From an uncultured Spirochaetota bacterium (lineage in GTDB: Bacteria; Spirochaetota; Brevinematia; Brevinematales; JAOACQ01), in NCBI GenBank assembly GCA_963806975.1, contig CAWEAK010000007.1:56034-120033 (forward strand): 64,000 nt of DNA, given 5' to 3'. Shown piece after piece: positions 27,053-35,435 of this stretch. Position 1 is the first letter of the stretch. Each line of letters starts with the position of its first letter. A program made the translations under genes and the position numbers. The notes beneath the pieces were generated by a model. The model saw only the letters and a list, made by a program, of their open reading frames with translations. It was not told where the DNA came from and searched no databases.

Positions 27053-29281
27053 TTGTTTTATTTTCAGCAAAACTTGAAAAAACAAATAATTCCAGGATTA
27101 ATAATTATTTTTGCTATTGTATCAATACTAATGGTATCTCAATATTTTTGGGCTGAATATAATCTGGAACACCAGATTCAATTTAATGCAAACGCGGTAA
27201 TATCCTTATATGATCAGGCTCCTTTCAGAATGGAAGCATCTTTTTTTGCAGGAATCTTATCAGGAATTATTTTTATTTTTCTTCTCATTCGTTTATTCAG
27301 AGTGGAAGACTTGAAAAAGGCCTCTATTATCACAGCTCCTTTTTATTTGGTTTGGATTTTTCCCTTACACCTGGAAAAATATGGTTTGGGTTTTATAAAT
27401 GAAATAATAGCTTTTTCTATCCCGATAATATGCTGTATTCTTATATCATTTATGATAATAATTCAATTTCAAAGACAAAAAAATAAAAAATACTTTAAAG
27501 GATCTTTTCTTATTTCCGGAATTTTTGTCCTTACATTATTTTATTTCGGTCCTCTCCAAATCTACCTGACAAATCCGATGGAGTTTTATTTTCTATTACC
27601 AAGGCTGATTTTTTATCTTATCCCTGCCGCTTTATTTCTGTCAATATTTTTTTCATGGATTATTCTATTGCGTTCTAATTTATCTGATAAGGATGAATCG
27701 CTACATCAAAGGGTTATTTCAATTATTTTAGCCTTGTCGGCAGCATTCTGGATTCAGGGTAATTTACTGGTCTGGAATTACGGTCTTCTGGATGGCAGTA
27801 AAATAAATTGGGGATCAAAAATATTAAACGGAGTTATCGACAGCGGAGTATGGATATTAGTTATCCTGGCGGGAATACTGTTTTACAGGATTATCTATCG
27901 CAGGGCAAAAAAAATTGCCGGGATTTTCATGTTAATCCAGATGATATTTACCATATTACTTTGTTTTCAGCTTCCAAAAAATAACCACCAGGAAGAACAA
28001 AGCTTCAGGCGTTTTACACTGAATGAGGATGAGAAATTTACTTATTCTTCGGGAACCAATATAATTGTATTCGTGCTGGATGAGTTTCAATCAAATATTT
28101 TCAATGAAATTATGATGGAGAAACCTGAATTGAAAAAATATTTTGATGGCTTTACTTATTTTAAGAACAATACGGGTTTTCTGCCATTTACCCTGGGTTC
28201 GATAGGTTACATACTGACCGGACGAGTTTATAATAATGATAAGCCATTACCGGAATTTTTGAAGGAAACTTTTTCAACCCATTCAATTTTAAAGACCCTG
28301 AAAGATAACCGGTTTATAGTTGATTTCTATCCACTGGATTTATCTACTGTATATTTCGATGAACGGAATATTTCCAATATTAAAAAAAGGAATGATCCGG
28401 CTGAGGTTGTAAAAGAGCTGGCTTATCTGTATGATGCGGCACTATTCCGATATGTTCCTCATTTTATTAAACGTTTTATTTATAATGACGGGGAATGGTT
28501 TTTGTACCGCACAGCCGAAAATATCCAATTCAGTAAATTTACCGTCAAAAAAAATAATTCCAAAAATCTGGTTTTAAATGACCGGGCTCGTTTTGTCAAC
28601 AGCATTAGTTTTCTCAATGATATGCTCCTTCAATCCAATTTGGCTGGAAATTCAAACAGGTTTAAGTTTTATCATATTATGGCTGTCCATGCCCCGTTAG
28701 AAATGATTACTGAAAATTATGATGTAAAGGTGGTTGATTATAATAAAACAAATTATAAAACACAGGCGCTAGCTATACTCAAAATTGTAAAGTTTTATCT
28801 GGAACGATTAAAAGAACTTGGAGCGTATGATAATTCTTTCATCTTTTTTATCGCGGATCATGGTAGCGGAAGGACGCCTGATATGTATATTAATCCCGAT
28901 TCACCGAAAGAGCTTGAGAAAACCAGATACAACGAGGAAAACTTTGAATTTTTCAAAGCCCGGGGTAACCCGCTCATGCTTGTAAAAAAGCCCGGCGATA
29001 ACTTCCCTTTAAAAATATCTGCTGCACCGGTTTCTTTAGGAGATATTCCAATAACTATTACTAAAACGCTGAATATTCAATCTGATTTTGAAGGGCAATC
29101 AATCTTTGAAATAGATCCAAAGGCTGTTAGGGTAAGATACTTTCGGGCAAGCCGGCATGATATAAATCCACCCCCAAATTATATCAACCCTATGACAGAA
29201 TACGAAATAAACGGCGATAGCTGGCTTGACAGCTCCTGGAAATTGACAGGAAGAGTCTTTAATCCTCCGGTAGAAAAATAG
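27053..29281 (+). CDS. Polytopic membrane protein with a C-terminal alkaline-phosphatase-superfamily (LtaS/EptA/sulfatase-like) transferase domain
   Basis: About 300 aa of TM helices, then NIIVFVLDEFQS (metal-binding Asp), FYHIMAVHAPLE and FFIADHGSG motifs. There is no C/S-x-P-x-R formylglycine motif. Confidence 0.7.
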   Translation: MFYFQQNLKKQIIPGLIIIFAIVSILMVSQYFWAEYNLEHQIQFNANAVISLYDQAPFRMEASFFAGILSGIIFIFLLIRLFRVEDLKKASIITAPFYLVWIFPLHLEKYGLGFINEIIAFSIPIICCILISFMIIIQFQRQKNKKYFKGSFLISGIFVLTLFYFGPLQIYLTNPMEFYFLLPRLIFYLIPAALFLSIFFSWIILLRSNLSDKDESLHQRVISIILALSAAFWIQGNLLVWNYGLLDGSKINWGSKILNGVIDSGVWILVILAGILFYRIIYRRAKKIAGIFMLIQMIFTILLCFQLPKNNHQEEQSFRRFTLNEDEKFTYSSGTNIIVFVLDEFQSNIFNEIMMEKPELKKYFDGFTYFKNNTGFLPFTLGSIGYILTGRVYNNDKPLPEFLKETFSTHSILKTLKDNRFIVDFYPLDLSTVYFDERNISNIKKRNDPAEVVKELAYLYDAALFRYVPHFIKRFIYNDGEWFLYRTAENIQFSKFTVKKNNSKNLVLNDRARFVNSISFLNDMLLQSNLAGNSNRFKFYHIMAVHAPLEMITENYDVKVVDYNKTNYKTQALAILKIVKFYLERLKELGAYDNSFIFFIADHGSGRTPDMYINPDSPKELEKTRYNEENFEFFKARGNPLMLVKKPGDNFPLKISAAPVSLGDIPITITKTLNIQSDFEGQSIFEIDPKAVRVRYFRASRHDINPPPNYINPMTEYEINGDSWLDSSWKLTGRVFNPPVEK

Positions 29282-29357
29282 ATAAATGCTGCCACCAATA
29301 TCATTGTTATTATATAAATAAACTTAACTCTGGGTCTAGGTATAATCCTCTATCCGG

Positions 29358-31232
29358 TTATTGCTTTAACATTGAAATGTACTGACCGAGCAATCCGACA
29401 AACCTTTCCATATCTCCGGTATTCATTTCACCAATATTTGCAATCCTGAAAGTATTGGCTTTCGAGATTTTACCTGGATAGATCGTAAAGCCTCTGTCAT
29501 AAAAATAATCATGCATTTTTTCAAAATTATATCCGGGATAATCCGGTTCTATAATCGCAGTTAACAATTTCGATTGAAGCTCAATAGGTACAATGTATTT
29601 GAGATTCAGATGCTTTAATCCCTCTATCAGAACTTCCCAGCAAGCCGTATATCTTTTATAACGGTTTGTGATTCCTTCGGTCTTCGCTTCGATAATTGCC
29701 TGTCTGAGTGCATAAAAGGTCTGAACGGGCGGCGTAAAACGAGTCTGATGAGTTCTTTCAAAGTGTTCATATTGTTTATACAGATTGAGGTAATAGTTCC
29801 GGCTTTTATTAAATCTGGTTTTTTCAAGAGAGGCTTTATTTGCAATAACAAAGCAGATACCGGCCATTCCCTGTATGTTTTTGTTGGAACTAGCGGTCAG
29901 AAAGCTTATGTTCATTGCTTTCATATCAATAGGAATAGCTGCAAAGGAACTGATGCCGTCAACCAGGAGTTCAATACCGTATTTTACGCATATTTCTCCG
30001 ATAATTGAAACATTGTTCAATAAACCAGTTGTTGTTTCATGATGCACGGTAAACAAATGGGATATTTTTTTATGATTTGAGTCTATTAAATCCATATTTT
30101 TTTTAATCATGGATTCTAATGCAATAAAATCAATCGAATCATCCGGTGGGCTTTTAAACTCCACATAGTTCATTCCGTAAGCCTCTGCGATACGGCACAT
30201 TCTCTCTCCATATGCGCCGTTATTTATGATTAATACCGGATCATCTCCAACAGTCGAGGTAAGCATAGCTTCCATTGCGGCAGTACCCACACCCCCGAAA
30301 AGCACGGTTGTGTATTCCTTCGGATCGGCTACAATAGAAGTAAGTTCTCTTGAAACATACTCCATCAGATCGCCGAATTCTTTTTCCCTTGGGCAGATGT
30401 CAGGAACAACCTGTGCGTATTTAACGCTGTCTGTTGTTGTGGCCGGCCCCGGATTTAAAAGTACATTCCTTTTTACGGAAAGAAAAGCTTCCTTATCGCA
30501 GATAAGCGGGTAGATTTTTGACCTGGCCCTTTCCAGATGATTTTCATCATCGATTTCACACCAGGAATAATCGTCGATTTTCTTAATATAGAATGGTTCT
30601 GCCTTATTTTTAATATGGAGGCTTGAAATTTTCGCAATGGCAGCTTCATAATCCATTTTTTTATTGATCTCAAGTTCCTCTTCAGAATAACTGCATAATT
30701 CGATGAAAGTGGAATAGGATATTTTAGAAATGCCTACTAACTCGCCATAAACATTCTTTAATTTGTCTTTCATTTTAGACACCTGAGTAAGCTGACCTTT
30801 TTCATTTGCCTCAATATATACTTCGTCTTTTGACATTGTAAAGCCGCTTGCCAGAATAACATCTTTTTGAAAATCATTCAACAGGACTTTAAGGCCCAAC
30901 TTATCATATAAAAGATCAGATTCTAAAAGCAAAAAGTCATCTTTGATGATATCCCTCATATTATACAAAGTGCATAAGCTTCCAGAGTTCTCATAATCAG
31001 GATTATATTTGCAGCTTATCAGATAAAAATTCCTAGCGAATTCCTCGTATTTTTTAAAAAGATAGCCTGTCCCGATAAAGATGTTTTCAATACCGGATTC
31101 AATAAGTTTTCTTATCGATTGCTCAATTATAGGTTTTCCTCCGATTTCAAGAAAACCCTTCGGTATATCCTTTGTTCTGTCTTTTAATCTGCTGCCAAGT
31201 CCGGCTGCCAGTATAACCGCAGTTTTAACCAT
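29358..31232 (-). CDS. Bifunctional nucleotidyltransferase (LicC/PntC-like) / 2-aminoethylphosphonate:pyruvate aminotransferase
   Basis: N-terminus [32 protein letters not shown] (NTP-transferase). The C-terminal ~360 aa is a class V aminotransferase with [13 protein letters not shown]... and SSNKNIQG (PLP lysine), as in PhnW. Confidence 0.85.
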   Translation of the reverse strand: [624 protein letters not shown]

Positions 31233-35171: not shown

Positions 35172-35207
35172 TATTACCTCTTGAAATTTAACAGCTTATT
35201 TTTCTGT

Positions 35208-35435
35208 TTATTGACCGGTACTCTGGCCTATTTTGAAGATTTTTTTAAAAAATGATTTGATATTGCCCCAGAAAAATTTTACACCCATAATAATACCGAC
35301 AAGACCTCCGGCAAGAACCTGCAAATAAAAATTAATGGAGGCCGGGTCCATATAGGCATAAGTGATTTGAGGAATGGCTACCAGCAGAGCCACCATAAAA
35401 ATCAAAAAATAAGGGAACGCCTTGAATATCGTCAT
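35208..35435 (-). CDS. Small two-TM membrane protein
   Basis: 75 aa, two hydrophobic helices, first ORF of the minus-strand phosphonate operon. No family recognised. Confidence 0.35.
   Translation of the reverse strand: MTIFKAFPYFLIFMVALLVAIPQITYAYMDPASINFYLQVLAGGLVGIIMGVKFFWGNIKSFFKKIFKIGQSTGQ

Follow-up and report, generated by a model that had tools for sequence, protein, structure and literature searches.

A Spirochaetota phosphonate cluster that makes 2-aminoethylphosphonate and activates it as CMP-AEP, with candidate envelope transferases

The window analyzed here, a 64,000-nucleotide stretch of a contig (CAWEAK010000007.1) from an uncultured Spirochaetota bacterium, contains a real phosphonate cluster of a largely familiar bacterial kind, in which 2-aminoethylphosphonate (AEP) is made and then activated as CMP-AEP. 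The cluster products probably attach AEP to the cell envelope. With moderate confidence, we read the locus as a phosphonyl-tailoring (Pnt) cluster that decorates the envelope with AEP, including the roles proposed below for two transferases and for a second nucleotidyltransferase (NTase) domain, NT2.

Locus organization

An ORF check recovered all six open reading frames of the preliminary description as real genes with unchanged coordinates (6/6; positions 27053-35435 of the window), and the two NTase N-termini that it quoted were both correct (Table 1). Within the minus-strand operon, successive genes are separated by 36, 61, about 1, and 22 nt. Two overlapping sigma-70-like matches (9/12 each, one with TG) form the candidate operon promoter, a weak call given that 52 such sites were observed across the region against 38 +/- 6 expected. 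A promoter-like site with 11/12 matches lies upstream of the 742-aa gene and suggests that this gene is a separate transcription unit. No glycan-assembly genes adjoin the operon in the window, the nearest (Bac_transf and GT1) being about 25 kb away.

Table 1. Features of the phosphonate locus (positions within the window)
Feature	Position	Strand	Basis
Small membrane protein, 75 aa	35208..35435	-	Hydropathy, two hydrophobic segments
TagF-like (Glyphos_transf, GT-B type) phosphotransferase, 375 aa	34044..35171	-	Pfam PF04464
PepM-NT2 fusion protein, 532 aa	32384..33982	-	TIGR02320 and C-terminal NTP_transf_3
PEP mutase domain, residues 1-290 of the 532-aa fusion	33113..33982	-	TIGR02320
NT2, NTP_transf_3 domain, residues 291-532 and stop codon	32384..33112	-	Fused to PepM
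Ppd, phosphonopyruvate decarboxylase	31255..32415	-	TIGR03297
NT1-AEPT fusion protein, 624 aa	29358..31232	-	NTase and TIGR03301
NT1, PntC-type AEP cytidylyltransferase domain, residues 1-250 of the 624-aa fusion	30483..31232	-	Tde1415 match
AEPT domain, AEP:pyruvate aminotransferase, residues 251-624 and stop codon	29358..30482	-	TIGR03301
Polytopic LtaS-like membrane protein, 742 aa, convergent to the operon	27053..29281	+	C-terminal alkaline-phosphatase (AP)-superfamily domain
Candidate operon promoter, two overlapping sigma-70-like matches, upstream of the 75-aa gene	35479..35519	-	
Promoter-like site, TTGACA-17-TATACT with TG, upstream of the 742-aa gene	26921..26949	+	11/12 matches

Synthesis and activation of AEP

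Profile matches were far above chance, exceeding curated cut-offs with E-values down to 1e-195. The PEP mutase scored 397.8 bits against TIGR02320 (cut-off, 319.55), carries the motif [10 protein letters not shown] at residue 110, and its domain matches the Mytilus PEP mutase 1m1b with 469 bits. Ppd scored 413.6 bits against TIGR03297 (cut-off, 312.5); its true start is probably M12, at position 32382, and its ortholog in L037, an 85%-identical relative, is called at 376 aa. The AEPT domain scored 377.3 bits against TIGR03301 (cut-off, 360.8) and matches the structures 6pd1, 1m32, and 9kk8.

The NT1-AEPT fusion matches the crystallised Tde1415 of Treponema denticola over its full length (654 bits), and NT1 alone matches the Tde1415 PntC domain with 229 bits. 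NT1 conserves GLGSR, K25, E104, D106, K153, E196, and D222, that is, every catalytic and AEP-contact residue, all identical to those of Tde1415. Judged by sequence, NT1-AEPT is a full-length ortholog of Tde1415, the PntC domain of which yields CMP-AEP (PMC6697681). This orthology bears out the route outlined in the preliminary description, namely, PepM, Ppd, and AEPT followed by CMP activation. Thus, by orthology, PepM turns PEP into phosphonopyruvate, Ppd decarboxylates this to phosphonoacetaldehyde, AEPT transaminates the aldehyde to AEP, and the fused PntC domain NT1 combines AEP with CTP to give CMP-AEP.

The co-occurrence of both fusion types in one operon, previously taken to be unusual, is not. 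The T. denticola Pnt cluster (Ppm-NTase, Ppd, and the PntC-AEPT Tde1415) shares this three-gene core, both fusions included, and the presence of a ppm-fused NTase and a separate NTase was already stated for the clusters of Fig. 3c in Rice et al. 2019, T. denticola included (PMC6697681); Li & Horsman 2022 called the combination frequent. The core of PepM-NT2, Ppd, and NT1 (with or without AEPT) was also found in Spirochaeta thermophila, Clostridia, Oligoflexia, Bacillota, Ignavibacteria, and Cytophagales (about 16 loci). The nearest named homologs are 57-60% identical, and the operon genes of L037 are 75-93% identical to those in the window.

The PepM-fused NTase domain

The preliminary description held that the two NTase domains are divergent, and the tree agrees. 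NT1 and NT2 share about 30% identity in an alignment of about 116 residues and belong to separate old clades (59/60 bootstraps for NT2, 57/60 for NT1 with Tde-PntC) instead of being recent duplicates within one PntC clade. The pyrophosphate loop of NT2 is non-canonical (AARGDKFG...PK): the domain has no GxG(S/T)R loop, no R15, and no equivalent of the amine-binding E104, which is replaced by Tyr or Phe. It retains K25, D106, an invariant Asp at position 197, and the Asp of the D222 region. A loss of catalytic residues from one domain, named in the preliminary description as speaking against its reading, is thus seen in part, in NT2, and the suggestion that the two NTases are redundant is not supported, given both the old separation and the missing R15 and E104. 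NT2 is, on these alignments, not redundant with NT1, since the PepM-fused clade has neither the loop nor the amine-binding Glu and is nevertheless better conserved than true PntC; it may not be a canonical cytidylyltransferase. We propose that NT2, rather than being a second PntC copy, is conserved and has a remodelled pocket for pyrophosphate and substrate; it would either activate a different, non-amine substrate or bind nucleotide non-catalytically.

The preliminary description offered two activated head groups as one option. In that case, NT2 would be catalytically active and would attach CMP to a second phosph(on)ate (phosphonoacetaldehyde, hydroxyethylphosphonate, phosphonopyruvate, or a phosphate ester, for example), leaving the TagF-like and AP-like proteins to install a different head group each. 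The retained residues fit such an activity, the Tyr or Phe in place of E104 is compatible with a non-amine substrate, and NT2 scores higher against LicC (72 bits) than against Tde-PntC (35 bits). Purifying selection on the domain is also strong, with 90% identity to L037 compared with 76% for NT1. However, we consider two activated head groups rather unlikely: the GxG(S/T)R loop is missing throughout the PepM-fused clade, a deletion has removed R15 from 18 of the 20 closest NT2 orthologs, and the R15A substitution in Tde-PntC leaves less than 10% of the activity (PMC6697681). Furthermore, the operon encodes no enzyme for a second head group, and the domain has lost its P-loop part entirely in Priestia.

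The same losses, together with the retention of nucleotide- and Mg-binding positions, would suit a non-catalytic nucleotide-binding pseudoenzyme that serves PepM as a structural or allosteric module, for example by sensing CTP or CMP-AEP and so controlling the first committed step, with all activation left to NT1. Over more than 60 clusters (50% identity clustering), NT2 is an obligate fusion partner of PepM; it is more conserved than NT1, is eroded further in Bacillaceae with PepM intact, and is always accompanied by a separate canonical PntC in the same operon. We regard this explanation only as a tentative possibility, as regulation of PepM by NT2 is putative, the missing R15 could in part be compensated by an Arg, Gln, or Lys at position 12 of the loop, and published work gives such domains the PntC label.

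Fusions acting on phosphonates have precedents in Fom1 (cytidylyltransferase-PepM) and FrbH (cytidylyltransferase-PLP enzyme) (PMC6697681). The Fom1 domain is N-terminal and of family PF01467, whereas NT2 is C-terminal, of family PF12804, and without the canonical pyrophosphate loop; unlike the Fom1 and FrbH pathways, the locus has no antibiotic tailoring genes.

The TagF-like enzyme and the acceptor of AEP

Downstream of activation, Pnt clusters have been described with LicD-like phosphotransferases or glycosyltransferases (Rice et al. 2019, PMC6697681). Here, in contrast, the slot is filled by a TagF-like enzyme, a 75-aa partner, and an LtaS-like protein. The TagF-like protein scored 38.3 bits against Glyphos_transf (PF04464; cut-off, 22.1), and its AF2 model (pLDDT 93.8) finds its best Foldseek matches in TagF (3l7i/3l7l, E 1e-12) and TagF-like capsule polymerases solved with CMP. 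Invariant residues are H119, APSW195-198, RPHP225-228, D272, and E279, so that the APxW and RPHP motifs are shared with TagF/TarF, and CMP leaves in both. No PDB chain was detected by single sequence or family profile; consequently, exact counterparts of the TagF catalytic histidines cannot be assigned. With its 375 aa in a single domain, the protein is only 13-17% identical to TagF, and its genomic partners are phosphonate and aminoalcohol activation genes, not tag/tar genes. Lacking a hydroxyl group, AEP cannot form a polymer.

Synteny bears out the TagF-like gene as a candidate transferase. Among 26 de-duplicated loci of the subfamily with at least 8 kb of flank, an NTase or PepM was nearby in 24, with an NTase within 1 kb in 14 and PepM in 13. 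Neither the TagF-like nor the LtaS-like genes lack synteny with pepM in relatives, a lack that the preliminary description had named as evidence against its reading. In gut contigs, the subfamily adjoins LicCA-like NTase-choline-kinase genes and therefore appears to fill a LicD-like role. The Lic pathway (LicA/B/C/D, phosphocholine) follows the same logic, in which an aminoalkyl head group is CTP-activated by a LicC-type NTase and passed to a glycan, but the head group here is made de novo with a C-P bond, and the candidate transferase is GT-B TagF-like, not LicD. The TagF-like enzyme is not universal, because the S. thermophila core, located within a polysaccharide locus, has LicD in its slot.

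The 75-aa protein (TM segments 3-21 and 32-50) has a signal-like hydrophobic segment ending in TYA before YMDPAS, one TM helix, and a basic amphipathic tail, and it is 75% identical in L037. Small homologous ORFs adjoin TagF-like genes in 24/88 loci (BLAST), and in a Treponema MAG the same module, Y-x-D-P-G-T-G-S plus TM, forms the N-terminus of both TagF-like proteins. We propose that the 75-aa protein partners the TagF-like enzyme at the membrane or anchors it there. With this protein keeping it in place, the enzyme would use CMP-AEP as TagF uses CDP-glycerol: an acceptor hydroxyl would attack the phosphonate phosphorus with CMP as the leaving group, placing AEP as a phosphonate ester on a membrane-bound acceptor, presumably a lipid-linked glycan or lipid, at the cytoplasmic face.

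TagF-family enzymes use glycan or polyol acceptors. This speaks against a phosphonolipid product, in which the TagF-like enzyme would move AEP from CMP-AEP to diacylglycerol or another lipid, giving a membrane AEP-lipid and no decorated glycan, with the 742-aa protein unrelated or lipid-remodelling. To our knowledge, the CDP-alcohol phosphatidyltransferase family accounts for all known transferases from CMP-AEP or CDP-alcohols to lipids, and the locus has no member of it. The polysaccharide setting of the S. thermophila core and the occurrence of more distant 742-aa homologs in glycan clusters also make such a product unlikely, even though the operon lacks flanking glycan genes, its TagF-like enzyme has a dedicated membrane partner, and the putative phosphonolipid groups of the literature include PepM clusters that carry "multiple sulfatases" (PMC8942020).

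The 742-aa LtaS-like protein

The 742-aa protein has eight hydropathy-predicted TM segments; in its AF2 model, residues 12 to 306 form about ten helices and residues 320-740 an alpha/beta domain. LtaS and EptA have five TM segments. Alone, it scored 23.1 bits against Pfam Sulfatase, below the cut-off of 25; the best PDB match of its family profile is LtaS (4uoo, E=6e-11), and Foldseek retrieves AP-superfamily folds including PbgA, LtaP, MCR-1, sulfatases, and phosphonate monoester hydrolases. The invariant catalytic residues are D343, T380, H546, and D602-H603, and there is no formylglycine motif (C/S-x-P-x-R). With LtaS, GacH, EptA, and OpgB it shares the polytopic N-terminus, the extracytoplasmic AP-fold domain, the metal ligands D343 and D602-H603, the Thr nucleophile T380, and HxP.

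The 742-aa protein is thus a candidate extracytoplasmic AEP (phosphonyl head-group) transferase. It would act outside the membrane via a covalent Thr380-AEP intermediate, moving AEP from a lipid-linked donor to the final envelope acceptor, by analogy with the handling of glycerol-phosphate or phosphoethanolamine by LtaS, GacH, and EptA; in contrast to LtaS-type transferases, this would call for a hypothetical AEP-bearing lipid as donor.

Alternatively, the protein may be a mere neighbour or a hydrolase, in the latter case a phosphonate-monoester or phosphodiester hydrolase trimming or recycling surface AEP. Its convergent gene with its own promoter-like site, the hydrolases and sulfatases among the structural matches, and its identity of only 43% to the L037 counterpart (operon genes, 75-93%) point in this direction, and AP-like genes (HMM criterion) were not significantly more frequent in TagF-positive than in TagF-negative phosphonate loci (10/26 versus 4/26, p=0.12). 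We nonetheless find this alternative improbable. The polytopic N-terminal domain is usual in lipid-using transferases such as LtaS, EptA, GacH, and PbgA. Synteny and fusions bear out the earlier suggestion of a second candidate transferase: the operon of L037 is flanked by two co-directional paralogs; PntC is followed immediately by an LtaS-like gene in about 16 Cytophagales loci; and one locus encodes a fusion of Sulfatase (AP-like), YidC-like, and TagF-like parts in a single ORF (L068), with a truncated version in another (L112).

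Phosphonate core of the operon

The phosphonate cluster is real and of a known kind, and it was read correctly in the preliminary description, whose six ORFs were all confirmed at the coordinates assigned to them there. The minus-strand genes show operon-like spacing (36, 61, ~1, and 22 nt) and encode, in order, a 75-aa membrane protein, a TagF-like protein (375 aa), PepM fused to a C-terminal NTase domain (532 aa; domain NT2), Ppd, and an NTase domain fused to AEPT (624 aa; domain NT1). PepM scored 397.8 bits with the equivalog-level HMM TIGR02320 (cutoff, 319.55) and 469 bits against 1m1b, and it carries the diagnostic EDKxxxxxNS-type catalytic motif at residue 110. 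Ppd passed the equivalog TIGR03297 (413.6 bits; cutoff, 312.5), and its ThDP-binding C-terminal domain matched PF02775 at 55.8 bits. The AEPT domain has a class-V aminotransferase fold, matching 1m32 and 6pd1, the structure of the Treponema denticola PntC-AEPT fusion Tde1415. Since this domain passes the cutoff of the biosynthetic/generic AepZ model (TIGR03301, AepZ/PhnW; 377.3 bits versus 360.8) and fails that of the catabolic-type PhnW model (TIGR02326; 307 versus 400.8), a catabolic PhnW pathway was rejected; furthermore, PepM and Ppd are present, and PhnX and PhnA are absent. A cluster for a small-molecule phosphonate antibiotic was also rejected, as tailoring, ATP-grasp, and NRPS genes are missing and membrane transferases are found instead. 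Three flanking genes were discarded as members of the system because they are conserved neither in L037, a relative locus (~85% identical), nor in any other locus compared.

Features of the window and of homologous loci (L-numbers), with their coordinates
Feature	Coordinates	Strand	Remark
742-aa LtaS-like gene (AP742)	27053-29281	+	convergent with the operon
Prenyltransferase-like gene	25040-25996		flanking; not conserved in other loci
MBL-fold gene	25993-26778		flanking; not conserved in other loci
Alpha/beta hydrolase	35602-36534		flanking; not conserved in other loci
BcrAD_BadFG/DUF2229-like ORFs	36570-40791	+	two large ORFs, 520 and 892 aa
Maf-like and PAP2-like genes	20732-23060	-	Maf-like protein, 585 aa
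IS21-type istA/istB pair	9746-11574	-	rve + IstB_IS21
IS110-type transposase-like ORF	41803-42870	+	labeled by eye
Glycan-assembly genes	140-4346	-	nearest to the operon
Priestia megaterium PepM	L128:7368-8885		C-terminal extension decayed
Spirochaeta thermophila BcrAD/DUF2229 gene	L127:17065-21498		fused, 1477 aa
Cytophagales operon	L019:3602-5299		ends in LtaS-like gene
Human-gut lic-like locus	L094:1455-12983		
Deltaproteobacteria HGW-6 locus	L039/L040:9738-15395		GCA_002840435.1
AP-YidC-TagF-like fusion	L068:2204-5776		single ORF, 1190 aa
NT2-like fusion protein	L085:11105-14251		1048 aa

The occurrence of two NTase fusions in one operon, put forward at first as a novelty, turned out to be already published and common. 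According to Rice et al. 2019 (PMC6697681), the clusters of their Fig. 3c, that of T. denticola included, contain a ppm-fused plus a separate NTase, and Li & Horsman 2022 regard the combination as frequent. Our genome scan with the fusion protein as the query recovered 36 loci. By tblastn, the order [PepM-NT2][Ppd][NT1-AEPT] was found in Clostridia, Oligoflexia, Bacillota, and Ignavibacteria MAGs, and [PepM-NT2][Ppd][NT1] with AEPT as a separate gene in ~16 Cytophagales loci. Spirochaeta thermophila DSM 6192 has an identical core within a polysaccharide locus, followed by LicD, and Priestia megaterium retains the core with a decayed PepM C terminus. The headline feature is thus known, and the interest left lies in the uncharacterized transferase set and in the noncanonical Ppm-fused NTase domain.

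As for the decayed PepM, Pfam no longer recognizes an NTase in the C-terminal extension in P. megaterium and in locus L002. This extension aligns to NT2 only from residue 62 onward, which implies loss of the P-loop region; the genes after PepM encode a canonical PntC-AEPT and a NUDIX protein in both loci.

Predicted CMP-AEP synthesis by the AEPT-fused domain

The NT1-AEPT protein aligned end to end with Tde1415 (654 bits), and the NT1 domain by itself scored 229 bits against 6pd1. In Tde1415, the N-terminal domain makes CMP-AEP from CTP and 2-aminoethylphosphonate (AEP), and the key residues comprise a GXG(T/S)RX4-8PK loop that includes R15 and K25, together with K153, the Mg ligands, and two contacts of the AEP amine, E104 and E196 (PMC6697681). 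All of the Tde-PntC residues named in that study are invariant in the window NT1 and 31 orthologs. Moreover, NT1 and Tde-PntC formed one clade in 57 of 60 bootstraps of an NJ tree. From its 57% identity to the assayed domain, NT1 would convert CTP and AEP to CMP-AEP and PPi, and at the sequence level this predicted synthesis of CMP-AEP can be taken as shown by orthology. Consequently, the PepM, Ppd, AEPT, and CMP-AEP part of the initial interpretation stands, because the NT1-AEPT protein matches Tde1415 over its full length and the identified residues are all kept.

A divergent NTase domain fused to PepM

The preliminary description left two activated head groups or redundancy as explanations for the paired NTase domains, and it proposed a domain phylogeny as a check. 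In the bootstrapped NJ tree, NT1 grouped with Tde-PntC and NT2 fell apart from them, in a clade of its own recovered in 59/60 bootstraps; the two clades joined as one in only 3/60, and their identity is ~23%. A recent duplication was rejected on the basis of these separate clades.

NT2 does not have the GXG(T/S)R loop that binds pyrophosphate and contains Arg15: the window reads AARGDKF, with A-R-G-D-K in place of the LicC/PntC G-x-G-(S/T)-R, and the sequence in 18 of 20 close orthologs is AASQG(x)-LG, in which the Arg position has been deleted. Among the best 150 matches in a search of 1.84 billion representatives, all PepM-fused members have the noncanonical loop, and the canonical one reappears only in stand-alone NTases of 28 to 33% identity. 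In Tde-PntC, the first five consensus residues of the loop form the PPi pocket, and the R15A variant keeps <10% of the activity (PMC6697681). The 20 close orthologs all retain Lys25 and the Mg-binding D106, with D/N at position 222, and position 197 is an invariant Asp. The acidic residue for the head-group amine (Tde E104/LicC D105) is absent from all 20, being replaced by Tyr (18) or Phe (2). Between the window and L037, NT2 is 90% identical and NT1 76%, and hence NT2 does not appear to be decaying in the window lineage. Redundancy is therefore disfavored, since the domains form separate clades and NT2, remodeled at the loop and the E104 site, is nevertheless more conserved than NT1. NT2 may be either a handler of a different, non-amine substrate or a nucleotide-binding domain devoid of canonical catalysis. 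The commonest Ppm-fused "NTase" domain lacks the canonical pyrophosphate loop and may not be an ordinary cytidylyltransferase. This touches the headline claim of a fused nucleotidyl activation in roughly one-third of all Ppm enzymes.

An NT2-like domain with an aberrant loop (GAGRSGAGS) also occurs in L085, in a protein adjoining a TagF-like gene and fused to PPDK_N and PEP-utilizing mobile domains; this fusion may be another route to head-group activation.

The TagF-like protein and its proposed small membrane partner

The TagF-like protein matched Pfam PF04464 (Glyphos_transf) at 38.3 bits (cutoff, 22.1). Single-sequence and profile searches against the PDB gave no match, and only fold comparison was successful: the AF2 model (pLDDT, 93.8) has a TagF-type GT-B fold, with TagF 3l7i as the best match (Foldseek E value, 1.3e-12; TM score, 0.63), followed by TagF-like capsule polymerases solved with CMP. 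The catalytic histidines of TagF are H444 and H584. The subfamily has two invariant histidines, H119 and the RPHP residue H227, which may or may not correspond to the TagF pair.

The subfamily comprises 2,454 homologs. We fetched 80 metagenomic loci with the family alignment, called and annotated their ORFs, and de-duplicated them at 80% identity; 26 of the resulting clusters had at least 8 kb of flank. Synteny with pepM in relatives, on which the preliminary description had made its proposal depend, was borne out, as an NTase or PepM is nearby in 24 of the 26 clusters (PepM in 13; an NTase within 1 kb in 14), and 19 have a nearby membrane partner. Where PepM is missing, the partners are NTase fusions, either with a class-I/II aminotransferase-like domain or with a choline kinase (LicCA-like), and a permease is often found alongside. 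Given these NTase-fusion partners, the subfamily appears to behave as a transferase of CTP-activated small aminoalkyl head groups, a role filled elsewhere, including in S. thermophila, by LicD. The genomic partners argue for CMP-AEP or a CDP-aminoalcohol as the donor over CDP-glycerol.

In the 75-aa protein, a signal-like segment that ends in TYA|YMDP is followed by a single TM helix and a basic tail. TagF-like genes in other loci are flanked by related small ORFs, and in a Treponema MAG the same Y-x-D-P-G-T-G-S plus TM module forms the N terminus of both TagF-like proteins. Many gut contigs instead encode the TagF-like domain as a fusion with a YidC/Oxa1-like (60KD_IMP) domain. Many TagF-like proteins of 370 to 400 aa (P0009, P0011, and P0012, among others) carry the JGI label "YidC/Oxa1 family membrane protein insertase," probably an error spread from such fusions.

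Human-gut metagenome contigs (L088 to L104) hold lic-like loci with a TagF-like member where LicD is expected. L094, for example, encodes an AP-like protein (554 aa), an amino-acid permease (491 aa), MarR-NTase (306 aa), an amidohydrolase (525 aa), NTase-choline kinase (586 aa), YidC-like plus TagF-like (648 aa), and an NTase-aminotransferase-like protein (603 aa). The Deltaproteobacteria locus has a small TM ORF, a TagF-like gene (54% identical), and NTase+DUF6564+Aminotran_1_2 (594 aa), with a 567-aa sulfatase-like protein two genes further on in L040; it is without PepM, and therefore the module appears to serve a nonphosphonate head group there.

The convergent LtaS-like protein

The 742-aa protein scored 23.1 bits with the Pfam Sulfatase model PF00884, under its cutoff of 25, and its homologs P0122 to P0139 carry this domain. 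The best match of the family profile was LtaS 4uoo (E = 6e-11), and the C-terminal domain of the AF2 model (pLDDT mostly ≥90) matches alkaline-phosphatase (AP)-superfamily structures, including full-length PbgA, LtaP, and MCR-1. Eight TM segments are predicted from hydropathy and about ten helices appear in the model, which indicates a polytopic membrane domain at the N terminus and a catalytic domain that presumably lies outside. D343, T380, H546, and D602-H603 (metal ligands and Thr nucleophile) are invariant in the family, and no formylglycine motif (C/S-x-P-x-R) was found in it; because of these features the protein is LtaS/EptA-like, and a sulfatase was rejected. By analogy with its family, it would transfer a head group from a membrane lipid donor.

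A strong promoter-like site precedes the gene. The L037 operon lies between two paralogs of it (43% and 39% identical), both encoded on the operon strand, and AP742-like genes occur in 10 of the 26 TagF loci. By the HMM criterion, AP-like genes were not significantly enriched in TagF loci over control phosphonate loci (P = 0.12), a control that is not clean because LtaS-like genes are present in the operons of the control loci as well: the matches are ~609-aa genes located 0 to 760 bp downstream of PntC, in ~16 Cytophagales operons without a TagF-like gene. L068 joins a polytopic AP-like part, a YidC/Oxa1-like part, and a TagF-like C terminus; Pfam detects Sulfatase (residues 203 to 452) and 60KD_IMP (580 to 769), and the family HMM and BLAST, not Pfam, detect the C terminus. 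L112 is a truncated copy of this fusion, whose domain order is topologically consistent, with the AP domain outside and the TagF-like domain inside. Considering the L037 paralogs, the TagF loci, the fusions, and the Cytophagales genes together, AP-superfamily membrane enzymes are recurrent predicted partners of these phosphonate operons. Li & Horsman 2022 mention only "multiple sulfatases," in one Selenomonas family (PMC8942020).

In the Cytophagales loci (L013 to L034; Chryseolinea, Fulvivirga, and others), the genes [PepM-NT2][Ppd][stand-alone PntC][LtaS-like] are codirectional, and the LtaS-like protein has 5 TM segments and LES...T...HEP...DHGH motifs. More distant AP742 homologs belong to glycan clusters that also contain GT2/GT4, Wzm/Wzt, or Wzy.

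Possible routes of AEP to the cell surface

The steps that move AEP from CMP-AEP to the cell surface "remain enigmatic" (PMC6697681). In a literature search with most subscription journals outside its scope, only the 2019 and 2022 papers cited above were found on CMP-AEP, PntC, phosphonyl tailoring, and AEP transferases, on the biosynthetic side, and neither a TagF-like nor an LtaS-like enzyme was assigned to AEP transfer. We consider it fairly probable that the TagF-like enzyme uses CMP-AEP to place AEP on an acceptor, glycan or lipid, that is bound to the membrane at its cytoplasmic face. More tentatively, the LtaS-like enzyme would act outside the membrane, using Thr380 to transfer AEP from a donor linked to lipid. 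Two points weaken this mechanism: no glycan locus adjoins the operon in the window, and the 742-aa gene is convergent and fast-evolving.

Both enzymes could also belong to an undescribed "make, flip, transfer" relay. The 75-aa protein or, in other lineages, the fused YidC/Oxa1-like domain would tether the TagF-like enzyme, which at the inner face would use CMP-AEP to load a membrane lipid carrier with AEP; the loaded carrier would cross the membrane; and the polytopic LtaS-like enzyme would hand AEP to an extracytoplasmic glycan via a Thr-AEP intermediate. Other aminoalkyl head groups activated with CTP (choline-type or aminoalcohol phosphates) would be handled by the same TagF-like and AP-like module, and NT2 would be a pseudo-cytidylyltransferase regulating PepM. 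Taken jointly, these proposals are unlikely to hold in full.

How bacteria make CMP-AEP is already known, and this locus and its relatives provide cloneable, assayable candidates for the later steps, namely, the TagF-like enzyme, its small 75-aa partner, and the LtaS-like protein. Because phosphonate decorations influence interaction with the host, recognition by phages and the immune system, and the cycling of phosphorus, the practical value is modest but real.

Other features of the window

The two BcrAD_BadFG/DUF2229-like ORFs adjoin the operon, and their fused counterpart near the S. thermophila phosphonate cluster shares only 20 to 28% identity, no more than a hint of a spirochete origin for the window. 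The Maf-like protein is of the flagellin-glycosylation type (MptE-like, with a weak Maf_flag10_N match) and the gene after it encodes a membrane protein resembling PAP2 lipid phosphatases; located ~4 kb from the AP-like gene, this pair may be a target system for glycosylation. The nearest glycan-assembly genes, ~25 kb off the operon, encode a Bac_transf sugar-phosphate transferase, a GT1/GT4 glycosyltransferase, and a B12-binding radical SAM enzyme. The IS21-type pair is a mobile element, and L037 ends in a DDE transposase.
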